From a virus: a DNA stretch of 23,240 nucleotides. Where the stretch lies: UHGV virus genome UHGV-0143097; one strand, given 5' to 3'. The translations under genes and the position numbers were made by a program. The notes under the pieces are model-generated. The model did not search any database. It was not told the origin of the DNA and saw nothing but the letters and a program-made list of their open reading frames with translations. Positions within the stretch are counted from its first letter, which is position 1. Every line of letters starts with the position of its first letter. Below are positions 3,743 through 3,776 of the stretch, piece by piece.

Positions 3743-3776
3743 GTGCCTGTCTTTTCACCACTTCAGGCTCGGTGGT
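3743..3776 (+). repeat. Copy 1 of a 34-bp conserved element (second copy at 13559-13593)
   Basis: TGTGCCTGTCTTTTCACCACTTCAGGCTCGGTGGT matches 13559-13593 at all but 2 positions (about 32 of 34); both copies contain the hairpin ACCAC-N10-GTGGT and lie 35-75 bp upstream of a plus-strand ORF. Confidence 0.6.

Follow-up and report, generated by a model that had tools for sequence, protein, structure and literature searches.

The virus genome UHGV-0143097, whose full 23,240 nucleotides are called the window here, carries the same 35-nucleotide element twice, each time upstream of a rightward gene placed among leftward early genes. On balance, we favour the reading that this element, termed the core, is the portable head of counter-oriented accessory genes (morons), with the promoter of the cargo gene on one strand and a sas-type antisense RNA with a pseudoknot on the other. 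In phage P22, the head carries the cargo promoter and the ribosome-binding site (RBS), and a discrete leftward RNA covers the leader and the start codon of the cargo gene sieB.

In the proposed mechanism, a head of ~ 65–110 bp precedes accessory genes placed backwards in the early-left operons of lambdoid prophages. On the rightward strand, the head would supply the weak sigma-70 promoter and the RBS of the cargo. The −10 would be of the TAAACT type, mapped in P22, in heads with two hairpins and a predicted TGnTATNCT in heads with one hairpin. The leftward strand would be transcribed only once the early-left promoter (PL) fires, and the resulting RNA would be, or would be processed into, a sas-type antisense RNA. 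In this RNA, one or two stem-loops would come first, matching the extreme 5′ end, the RBS and the start codon of the cargo mRNA by complementarity of their loop and 5′ arm. The 32-nt core would follow, folded as a compact H-type pseudoknot (helix S1, CCAC/GUGG; helix S2, GCCUG/CAGGC; A-rich third loop). The hairpin loop would meet the 5′ end of the mRNA as in IS10 RNA-OUT/RNA-IN, and antisense pairing with the cargo leader would stop or re-programme translation at the switch from lysogeny to the lytic state; the P22 case of this switch is the change from SieB to Esc. The pseudoknot would form a non-pairing 3′ domain by which the 3′ end of the antisense RNA is defined or stabilised, or by which the RNA becomes functional in some other way.

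By extension, the antisense logic may apply to every cargo of the head, including ymfI and the 81-aa open reading frame (ORF) behind the first copy. Because the sequence inside the cargo shows no conservation and a minus-strand promoter is not apparent (a consensus scan found no dedicated sas promoter on the minus strand inside sieB), the antisense RNA probably stems from PL read-through and processing; silencing would therefore be conditional on lytic transcription. A bolder version is offered tentatively and appears doubtful to us: the core would represent an unrecognised class of compact pseudoknots, a universal plug-in 3′ domain of read-through antisense RNAs and thus a general lysogeny-to-lysis switch of prophage cargo. 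Any accessory gene inserted backwards behind it would be on in the lysogen and become silenced or re-programmed automatically once PL fires, and the pseudoknot could be an exonuclease block or the binding site of an RNA chaperone or a phage factor.

The repeated core, its putative helices and its hairpins

Copy 1 occupies positions 3742–3776 (TGTGCCTGTCTTTTCACCACTTCAGGCTCGGTGGT) in an e14/SfV-like block and is identical in SfV and in the e14 prophage of K-12. Copy 2 occupies positions 13559–13593 (TGTGCCTGTCTTTTAACCACATCAGGCTCGGTGGT) in a lambda/HK140-like block, is identical to positions 34394–34428 of lambda J02459 and is 1 nt off P22. In lambda, the 35 nt lie between orf28/ral and sieB and are unannotated in J02459, V00638 and NC_001416. 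A repeat finder and a pattern search allowing three mismatches, run over the whole window, return exactly two copies, both on the plus strand and 35 nt long, with 2 mismatches and a start-to-start spacing of 9,817 bp; the chance expectation of such a repeat is 0.00 in 100 dinucleotide-preserving shuffles. A first-pass annotation of this DNA had correctly described two direct copies with 2 mismatches about 9.8 kb apart, but it let the first start at 3743 and gave a length of 34 bp instead of 3742 and 35 bp. Its view that the flanks are unrelated agrees with the repeat families in the window, none of which extends past the 35 nt. Matches of nhmmer and of a covariance model (CM) reach past the 35 nt because an analogous, non-identical hairpin adjoins. 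The distance to the plus-strand ORF, put there at 35–75 bp, measures 36 nt for copy 1 (ATG at 3813) and 72 nt for copy 2 (sieB ATG at 13666).

Copy 2 lies in a locus already known for antisense control. The genetics of the P22 sas antisense RNA and of the sieB/esc translational switch were reportedly worked out by Ranade & Poteete in 1993 (Genes Dev 7:1498), and the PsieB promoter of P22 and lambda is said to have been described by the same authors in the same year (J Bacteriol 175:4712). An RNA sequencing (RNA-seq) study of 2026 lists P22 sas as a 127-nt leftward antisense species (Table 2 of PMC13397905), and the published sequence includes the reverse complement of the element (PMC13397905). 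The homologue of sas is found at 13545–13670 on the minus strand of the window; over the 127 nt it differs from sas by 3 mismatches and 1 gap, and nucleotides 80–110 of sas are the counterpart of the core. When copy 1 is aligned with sas, the shared part is the 35-nt core only (score 34). The classical size of sas is given as 105 nt in a review table (PMC12197685), and a 105-nt RNA would end approximately at the pseudoknot. sas blocks the translation of SieB but not of Esc and is essential for P22 growth (PMC7067206, PMC12197685).

The P22 record BK000583 places the sieB promoter at 29690–29720 and the start of the sieB RNA at 29727, with esc beginning 72 nt into sieB. The −10 of P22 PsieB is TAAACT, the transcription start site (TSS) is an A located 31 nt before the ATG, and the core extends from −77 to −43. 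By homology to this mapped promoter, to which the window is identical here, the sieB promoter lies at 13624–13636 on the plus strand (−10 TAAACT at 13624–13629, TSS at A13636). The Esc start of the window, Met25 at 13738, agrees with the 72-nt offset of P22 esc; the cargo of copy 1 is unrelated to sieB. Since the mapped −10 and TSS lie downstream of the core, copy 2 is the upstream, promoter-free part of the sas gene.

The core contains two interleaved inverted repeats. The ACCAC-N10-GTGGT hairpin recorded in the first pass is indeed kept in both copies but forms one of two helices, and the second repeat, GCCTG-N14-CAGGC, interleaved with it in both copies, had been missed. In copy 1, S2 spans 3745–3768 on the minus strand, with arms at 3745–3749 (GCCTG) and 3764–3768 (CAGGC) which read GCCUG/CAGGC in the leftward RNA; S1 spans 3758–3775 on the same strand, with arms at 3758–3761 (CCAC) and 3772–3775 (GTGG). 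The putative pseudoknot of copy 2 covers 13562–13592 (minus strand) and combines S2 (13562–13566 with 13581–13585) and S1 (13575–13578 with 13589–13592) with an A-rich loop L3, the complement of 13567–13574. Hand parsing of 48 distinct core variants yields the minus-strand pattern CCAC-CGA-GCCUG-AN-GUGG-UNAAAAGA-CAGGC, in which the freely variable positions are the two junction nucleotides and the loops as well as the stems are invariant. On this strand, L1 has 3 nt over the 5-bp S2, L2 has 2 nt and the A-rich L3 has 8 nt over the 4-bp S1. Loops of 3, 2 and 8 nt fit the classical H-type geometry, whereas the 3-nt loop across a 5-bp helix on the plus strand is less favourable.

Sequence changes within the helices are rare and partly compensatory. 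Cores of the Rac type replace GCCUG/CAGGC in S2 by GCCCGG/CCGGGC, a compensatory change which adds one extra pair, and a Rac sub-variant with CUGGGC pairs only as G·U, on the minus strand. S1 is replaced by CGAG/CUCG in locus L226, by CCGC/GCGG in L312 and by GCAC/GUGU in L256 and L278, which belong to two Buttiauxella species; the second copy of Ca. Phlomobacter has U·G in both helices. The tally comprises three independent double-sided changes in S1, one in S2 (the Rac type) together with G·U variants, and five uncompensated variants. Among the wobble variants, five fit the minus strand only and two the plus strand only. Three whole-collection scans for S2 variants returned three contigs, none of them cleanly compensatory. 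Rfam holds no credible match at E ≤ 10 over either copy or the Rac copy, and at the gathering score only Lambda_thermo passes in the window, elsewhere than the core copies. Judged from these sequences, S1 and S2 are supported but not proven, and the same holds for the H-type pseudoknot which they would form on the leftward RNA.

To the right of every core follow one or two hairpins, then a Shine-Dalgarno sequence and ATG. The hairpin stems differ yet pair (ACTGG/CCAGT, GCTGG/CCAGC, TCTTGG/CCAAGA, TCCTTTTA/TAAAAGGA, TTCTCG/CGAGAA, ATCCTG/CAAGGAT), and their loops, read on the plus strand, carry the C-rich motifs ..CTCACACA, CCCCTACAG and CCCCAACAA. In copy 1, hairpin 2 (TCCTTTTA ... TAAAAGGA) lies at 3778–3805 on the minus strand, and its plus-strand 3′ arm holds the cargo Shine-Dalgarno sequence AAGGA (3801–3805). 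Copy 2 has two minus-strand hairpins, 2a at 13593–13617 (TTCTCG-TGTACCCCTACAG-CGAGAA) and 2b at 13628–13649 (CTCT-ATTCACCCCTAC-AGAG), the latter with the sieB TSS in its loop. A CM of hairpin 2, started from 15 seeds and then used to align 97 matches, shows both-sided changes in six of six modelled pairs. Paired cells reach 95.8% against 88.7% in shuffles, and the covariation score of 0.195 is reached by none of 500 shuffles (0.075) and compares with ≤ 0.035 in slid controls. Hairpin 2 was not recovered by MAFFT and RNAalifold from 100 minus-strand sequences, because loop gaps are not placed by structure there; the CM alignment was used instead.

Of 51 unique sequences, 49 form the more stable hairpin 2 on the minus strand (mean −8.9 vs −6.6 kcal/mol), to be read with the general tendency of G-rich strands to fold better. 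Some classes pair solely via G·U, and the CM alignment, which was fitted to the minus-strand model, contains 33 G·U cells against 6 A·C cells. The minus-strand stability, the G·U excess and the TSS position together lead us to assign the structure to the leftward RNA, either PL read-through or sas. The analysis of RNA folding and covariation which the first-pass annotation had suggested is thus divided in its outcome: the covariation of hairpin 2 is strong and the conserved RNA structure is that of the leftward strand, but the folding z-scores are unremarkable.

The promoter elements define two classes of heads. In 73 of 123 unique heads, TAYNYT directly follows the terminal ..GGTGG, which creates an extended −10-like TGgTATNCT with TTNACC 16 nt upstream in the core. 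The remaining 50 are two-hairpin heads, and nearly all of them carry TAnnnT (TAATCT, TAAACT, TAAAAT) between the hairpins, where P22 has its mapped −10. The predicted cargo promoter of copy 1 lies at 3754–3781 on the plus strand and consists of a −35-like TTCACC (3754–3759), a 16-nt spacer and TGgTATCCT (3773–3781), with a TSS expected at ~ 3785–3790; a generic promoter scan gave nothing at this site. The earlier remark that no clean sigma-70 hexamers are evident is called into question by this credible, though predicted, extended −10 abutting the copy 1 core. The accompanying idea of the element as a promoter fails for the core of copy 2, since the mapped P22 PsieB −10 and TSS lie 31–43 bp downstream of it. 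Relative to the TSS, the core extends from a predicted ~ −45 to −11 in one-hairpin heads and from −77 to −43 in P22-type heads, without fixed geometry. As the distance from core to −10 differs by ~ 48 bp between the classes while the core is invariant, a purely promoter role is unlikely.

In either class the TSS, a predicted one in one-hairpin heads, is located inside the last hairpin, which therefore cannot form in the cargo mRNA. With the P22 sieB TSS in the loop of hairpin 2b, the hairpins and the core are present only in the leftward RNA and not in the sieB mRNA. Two-hairpin heads have a duplicated loop motif, CCCCTACAG occurring twice at 13599–13611 and 13632–13645 and CCCCAACA being duplicated in a further class. 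Each of the two loops of the leftward RNA could thus pair with nucleotides 1–9 of the cargo mRNA, although just one is encoded opposite that stretch.

Distribution, cargo and related systems

An exact-pattern scan places the core in at least 120 IMG/VR contigs, with more than 40 left flanks and more than 25 right flanks among the at least 120 loci listed. Among the matches listed, the core always stands ahead of a rightward gene between leftward genes. The first rightward ORF falls into at least 30 unrelated clusters of 58–208 aa, including three sieB types, ymfI, the 81-aa ORF and zinc-ribbon proteins. None of the cargo representatives tested has an assigned function, and most match function-unassigned PHROG families. 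One left flank may be joined to several cargos, and one cargo to several left flanks. This outcome of a prophage search with the downstream genes recorded, a check proposed in the first pass, shows the core to be widespread and followed by unrelated cargo. It upholds the early suggestion of a portable promoter, regulatory or RNA element of counter-oriented morons.

Two heads occur in six sources, namely five loci and this window; the second match in L050/L062 is weak and probably represents chance or a decayed copy. No conserved right end or terminator of the module was found, and the cargo adjoins the 3′ end of the convergent leftward gene. On the other side, the next leftward ORF or RNA begins 2–140 nt left of the core. 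A species-level scan finds the core in ~ 50 Enterobacterales species. The exact copy 1 variant is present in 848 of 5,426 complete E. coli genomes, with no feature annotated under the match in the records listed. A tblastn search with SieB added little diversity, its matches being mostly at ≥ 78% identity. K-12 carries a diverged core in Rac, upstream of Rac's own sieB.

Low-coverage, tiny contigs with the core were also seen in unrelated bacteria (Nocardioides, Vibrio, Paenibacillus, Bradyrhizobium, Enterococcus and others; L262, L264, L265, L268, L273, L274, L277, L282, L297, L298, L302, L305, L308, L315 and others). Where the locus is long enough, the lambda ral–sieB flank is identical, so contamination of the assemblies with lambda DNA is most likely.

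Leftward of the core, many contexts (L034, L054, L071, L015; L126 at 7520–7562) share a CA-rich stretch resembling ACACAAC(A/G)(T/C)G(G/A)AAGCGCA, possibly another conserved RNA or a small ORF. In Rac, this stretch runs into the promoter region of KilS, an Hfq-associated small RNA (sRNA) encoded 60 nt leftward of the diverged core (L126 7406–7503; K-12 1,418,405–1,418,502, minus strand). Against the Rfam DicF model, KilS reaches 39.1 bits (E = 2.7e-7), less than the gathering score of 48. It has the look of a DicF paralogue, and its place before the division inhibitor kilR mirrors that of DicF before dicB. Both sRNAs are neighbours in the same operon position as the core, but KilS, which has a TSS and a terminator of its own, is a distinct RNA and does not overlap the core.

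P22 sas is among the closest known systems. Copy 2 is orthologous to it and shares sieB, the Met25 Esc start, the PsieB −10 and a leftward RNA antisense to the cargo leader and start codon, whereas genes other than sieB follow copy 1 and make up at least 30 further cargos. PsieB of P22 and lambda occupies the same intergenic region, with −10 TAAACT and TSS conserved at 13624–13636. The repeated 35 bp, however, lie upstream of the mapped promoter, and one-hairpin heads carry a different extended −10 which abuts the core. IS10 RNA-OUT/RNA-IN, lambda OOP and P22 sar provide a likeness as stem-loop antisense RNAs whose loop faces the 5′ end of the target and which block its RBS. They bear no sequence relation to the head, whose antisense RNA apparently comes from read-through and has an additional, putative pseudoknot domain. 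Lambdoid morons have reportedly been described as independently expressed accessory genes between essential phage genes, expressed from the prophage and diverse in cargo (Juhala et al. 2000; Cumby et al. 2012). A classical moron brings a promoter of its own and a terminator, whereas here one head serves many cargos, a conserved terminator or right end is lacking and the orientation is always opposite to that of the host operon. Compact H-type pseudoknots such as the preQ1-I aptamer, the T4 gene 32 leader and viral frameshift knots resemble the core in their ~ 32 nt, two short interleaved helices and A-rich third loop. The core differs in having no Rfam match at E ≤ 10 and in lying outside ORFs.

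The locus of copy 2 (sas/PsieB, since 1993) and the cis-antisense control of a prophage moron are thus already known. What appears to be new is the same 35 bp as a portable, near-invariant head of unrelated counter-oriented genes, unannotated in lambda, P22, Rac (where it is diverged) and e14, and probably folded as a pseudoknot in the leftward RNA. Among 8 million papers searched, the literal core sequence was found in the open-access literature only in the P22 RNA-seq table (PMC13397905). Several consequences would follow from the antisense reading. Lambda, P22 and two cryptic prophages of K-12 would carry an unannotated, near-invariant structured RNA domain, and a general rule would emerge for wiring backward-facing prophage accessory genes into the lysis–lysogeny circuit. 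To our knowledge, the 3′ domain of sas has never been described as a conserved, portable pseudoknot shared by unrelated genes. The head would further serve as a sequence tag for cargo expressed in prophages, with at least 30 function-unassigned families as candidates for superinfection exclusion or defence; it would explain sharp mosaic breakpoints in lambdoid genomes and offer synthetic biology a compact part that combines a promoter with a built-in antisense shut-off. K-12 has two versions, e14 (ymfH/ymfI) and Rac (kilS/sieB), in which the model is directly testable.

Evidence against the antisense reading and its alternatives

Several observations weigh against the antisense reading. The antisense RNA has been demonstrated experimentally for P22 sieB only, and sas as defined by RNA-seq does not end at the pseudoknot but 17 nt further on. 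Core covariation is drawn from a handful of lineages; mismatches are uncompensated in L193, L275, L249/252, L260 and L328, and the wobble variants of L292 and L326/327 are those which fit the plus strand only. Most core positions were fixed by the search patterns, and the invariance of the core is therefore partly a matter of ascertainment. Single-sequence folding, with software which models no pseudoknots, is unremarkable on both strands (z −0.3 to −0.7), which leaves the structure neither favoured nor disfavoured by thermodynamics, and the fit of the CM alignment to a minus-strand model bears on the pair counts derived from it. Furthermore, the core of one-hairpin heads overlaps the −35 and the spacer of the predicted promoter, where selection at the DNA level is possible.

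Such a DNA-level role is the alternative to which we give most weight, although we consider it unlikely. The core would act on the promoter of the rightward cargo or on a leftward one, either as a −35 or upstream promoter element or as the sequence bound by a host transcription factor, and its dyads would mirror the symmetry of a protein. The invariance of the loops and not of the stems alone fits this idea, as do the constant position upstream of a cargo gene and the extended −10-like TGgTAYNYT which begins at the last bases of the core, with TTNACC 16 nt upstream, in the 73 heads mentioned above; CAGGCT within the core also has the A2/T6 signature of a −10, and its TSS would fall just before hairpin 2. 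However, a core whose distance to the promoter differs by ~ 48 bp between classes, and which in P22 sits at −77 to −43 of a mapped TSS, is hard to reconcile with a promoter element, G never occurs at the position where it would improve the −35, and two interleaved dyads are atypical of protein sites. The compensatory changes in Rac, L226 and L312 preserve both helices. By eye, without a formal scan, the core shows no convincing match to CRP, LexA, IHF, marbox or LysR-type regulator (T-N11-A) motifs. One observation on e14 also speaks for a protein site and against the antisense reading: a Reg-Seq preprint which includes DNA chromatography (PMC12132413) places the LysR-type YhaJ near −55 of the predicted intE-xisE-ymfH TSS, in the region upstream of ymfH (about 1,201,380–1,201,500 in K-12), and this site possibly coincides with the core or lies nearby. 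According to the same preprint, the promoter is active only with gentamicin and in one replicate only (PMC12132413). In the main text of a chromatin immunoprecipitation sequencing study of YhaJ in enterohaemorrhagic E. coli, no such prophage site is named. A DNA-level role may be more plausible for the one-hairpin heads especially.

The structure on the leftward strand is equally expected if the core is a cis-acting RNA element of the polycistronic early-left mRNA which serves the next leftward gene, an explanation we regard as improbable. It could stabilise or insulate the 5′ end left once RNase III/E has cut the sense–antisense duplex over the cargo; it could also work as a translational or standby element, or as a protective 3′ end of the tL1 type for non-antiterminated, Rho-terminated transcripts. 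The core lies 2–140 nt upstream of the next leftward ORF, often followed by the CA-rich ACACAAC stretch, and in both copies it comes after the first PL gene and a long untranslated stretch antisense to the cargo, where Rho-dependent termination is expected. In lambda, ral expression needs N, so that tL1 lies between N and ral. Against this stand the very variable distance to the next start codon, the Rac case where the next feature is an sRNA with its own promoter, and the lambda and P22 records, in which no terminator is annotated here; the match between the hairpin loop and the 5′ end of the cargo mRNA would also be left unexplained. Still less credit is due to a mere recombination linker, that is, short shared homology for cassette exchange without regulatory function. 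Mosaic breakpoints do coincide with the core (window and e14 are homologous up to 3781 and again from 4299), and identical left flanks occur with different cargos and vice versa, but a neutral sequence would decay, whereas the core is near-invariant in ~ 50 species while the adjoining hairpins change by compensation. The extreme rarity of S2 variants (the three contigs from three whole-collection scans) and the retention of both helices in the diverged Rac copy point the same way. We attach hardly any credence to a rightward intrinsic terminator formed by the ACCAC..GTGGT hairpin and the following ATCCTTTT, although a terminator scan flags 3757–3776 on the plus strand. The stem of 4–5 bp is weak, there is no upstream rightward gene to terminate, and the T-run belongs to hairpin 2 of copy 1 and is absent from copy 2 and most family members. 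The terminator was rejected on the ground that the T-tract is not conserved.

Two further candidates were discarded. A small ORF in the core would place the two variable core positions, 6 nt apart, at third codon positions in one minus-strand frame; it is rejected since this frame has a stop directly upstream in copy 1 and no conserved start. A nut site is rejected because direct reading reveals no CGCTCTTA-like boxA on either strand, the core is downstream of N, and nutL lies elsewhere in lambda and P22. A minus-strand U-tract after the core is absent from 97 left flanks.

Gene neighbourhoods and other features of the window

The window consists of three blocks. Block 1 (1–5392) is e14/SfV-like and runs from int to a truncated cro. 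Block 2 (5393–10487) contains Mu/SfV-type tail genes, from the middle of the tail-sheath gene (residue ~ 263) through tube and tape measure to the baseplate hub. Block 3 (10488–23240) is a lambda/HK140-like early region which begins at exo. Neither of the junctions at ~ 5392 and ~ 10487 is contiguous in any of the 5,426 complete E. coli genomes, so the window is either a rare rearranged prophage or an artefact of assembly or concatenation. The two copies lie in distinct prophage blocks split by the tail block and therefore belong to two early-left operons. The first-pass annotation was right that the rightward genes run counter to leftward ones, but the single shared operon it assumed has to be given up.

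In block 1, the gene order around copy 1 is int, xis, ..., ymfH-like, element, 81-aa ORF, orf33-like, terminator, cI, cro. The 81-aa cargo ORF (3813–4058, plus strand) matches phrog_3311, function not assigned, is unannotated in SfV and belongs to a cluster of 17 loci. Its 3′ end overlaps by 83 nt the convergent first early-left gene, which is SfV orf33-like (3976–4272, minus strand; phrog_3195). e14 offers a parallel, the annotated ymfI and ymfJ overlapping by 63 nt; ymfJ is unrelated to the orf33-like protein. Downstream of copy 1 on the leftward transcript lies a ymfH-like gene (3473–3700, minus strand) with approximate start and frame; an alternative ORF spans 3013–3693 (phrog_204). K-12 e14 has the same 35 nt and the same left flank at 1,201,422–1,201,456, between the leftward ymfH and the rightward ymfI. 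The homology to the window breaks off 5 nt to the right of the core, at 3781, and picks up again at 4299. The swapped segment comprises hairpin 2, the cargo and an unrelated convergent gene.

The SfV/e14-type cI gene is immediately followed by a strong terminator-like hairpin at 4433–4414 (minus strand), and right after this hairpin comes a near-consensus promoter at 4405–4378 (minus strand; TTGACA-16-CATAAT, 11 of 12 matches). This is probably the early-left promoter of block 1, reading the orf33-like gene and then across copy 1.

In block 3, the gene order is exo, bet, gam, kil, cIII, ea10, ral, element, sieB, N. The cargo sieB (13666–14247, plus strand; 193 aa) matches phrog_1301 with E = 8e-124 and contains the in-frame Esc start Met25 at 13738. 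After copy 2, the next leftward gene is ral (13252–13452, minus strand). The first PL gene, an N-like antiterminator (14263–14628, minus strand), is convergent with sieB. At 12583–12641 on the minus strand, the lambda cIII thermoregulator (Rfam RF01804, 88.5 bits) is matched over its full length, which confirms a lambda-type cIII leader in this block.

Two further groups of repeats were observed. Three 21-nt direct repeats (AATAC..GGTATTT) and a 45-nt inverted repeat, at 14932–15025 and 16243–16287, flank a 238-aa repressor gene (15492–16208). Presumably they represent the operators OL and OR of an immunity type other than that of lambda. A 31-nt direct repeat with 74% identity (13087–13117 and 19553–19583) is centred on a GCCCTCACA..GGGC hairpin, and its first copy, between ral and ea10, resembles a minus-strand terminator.

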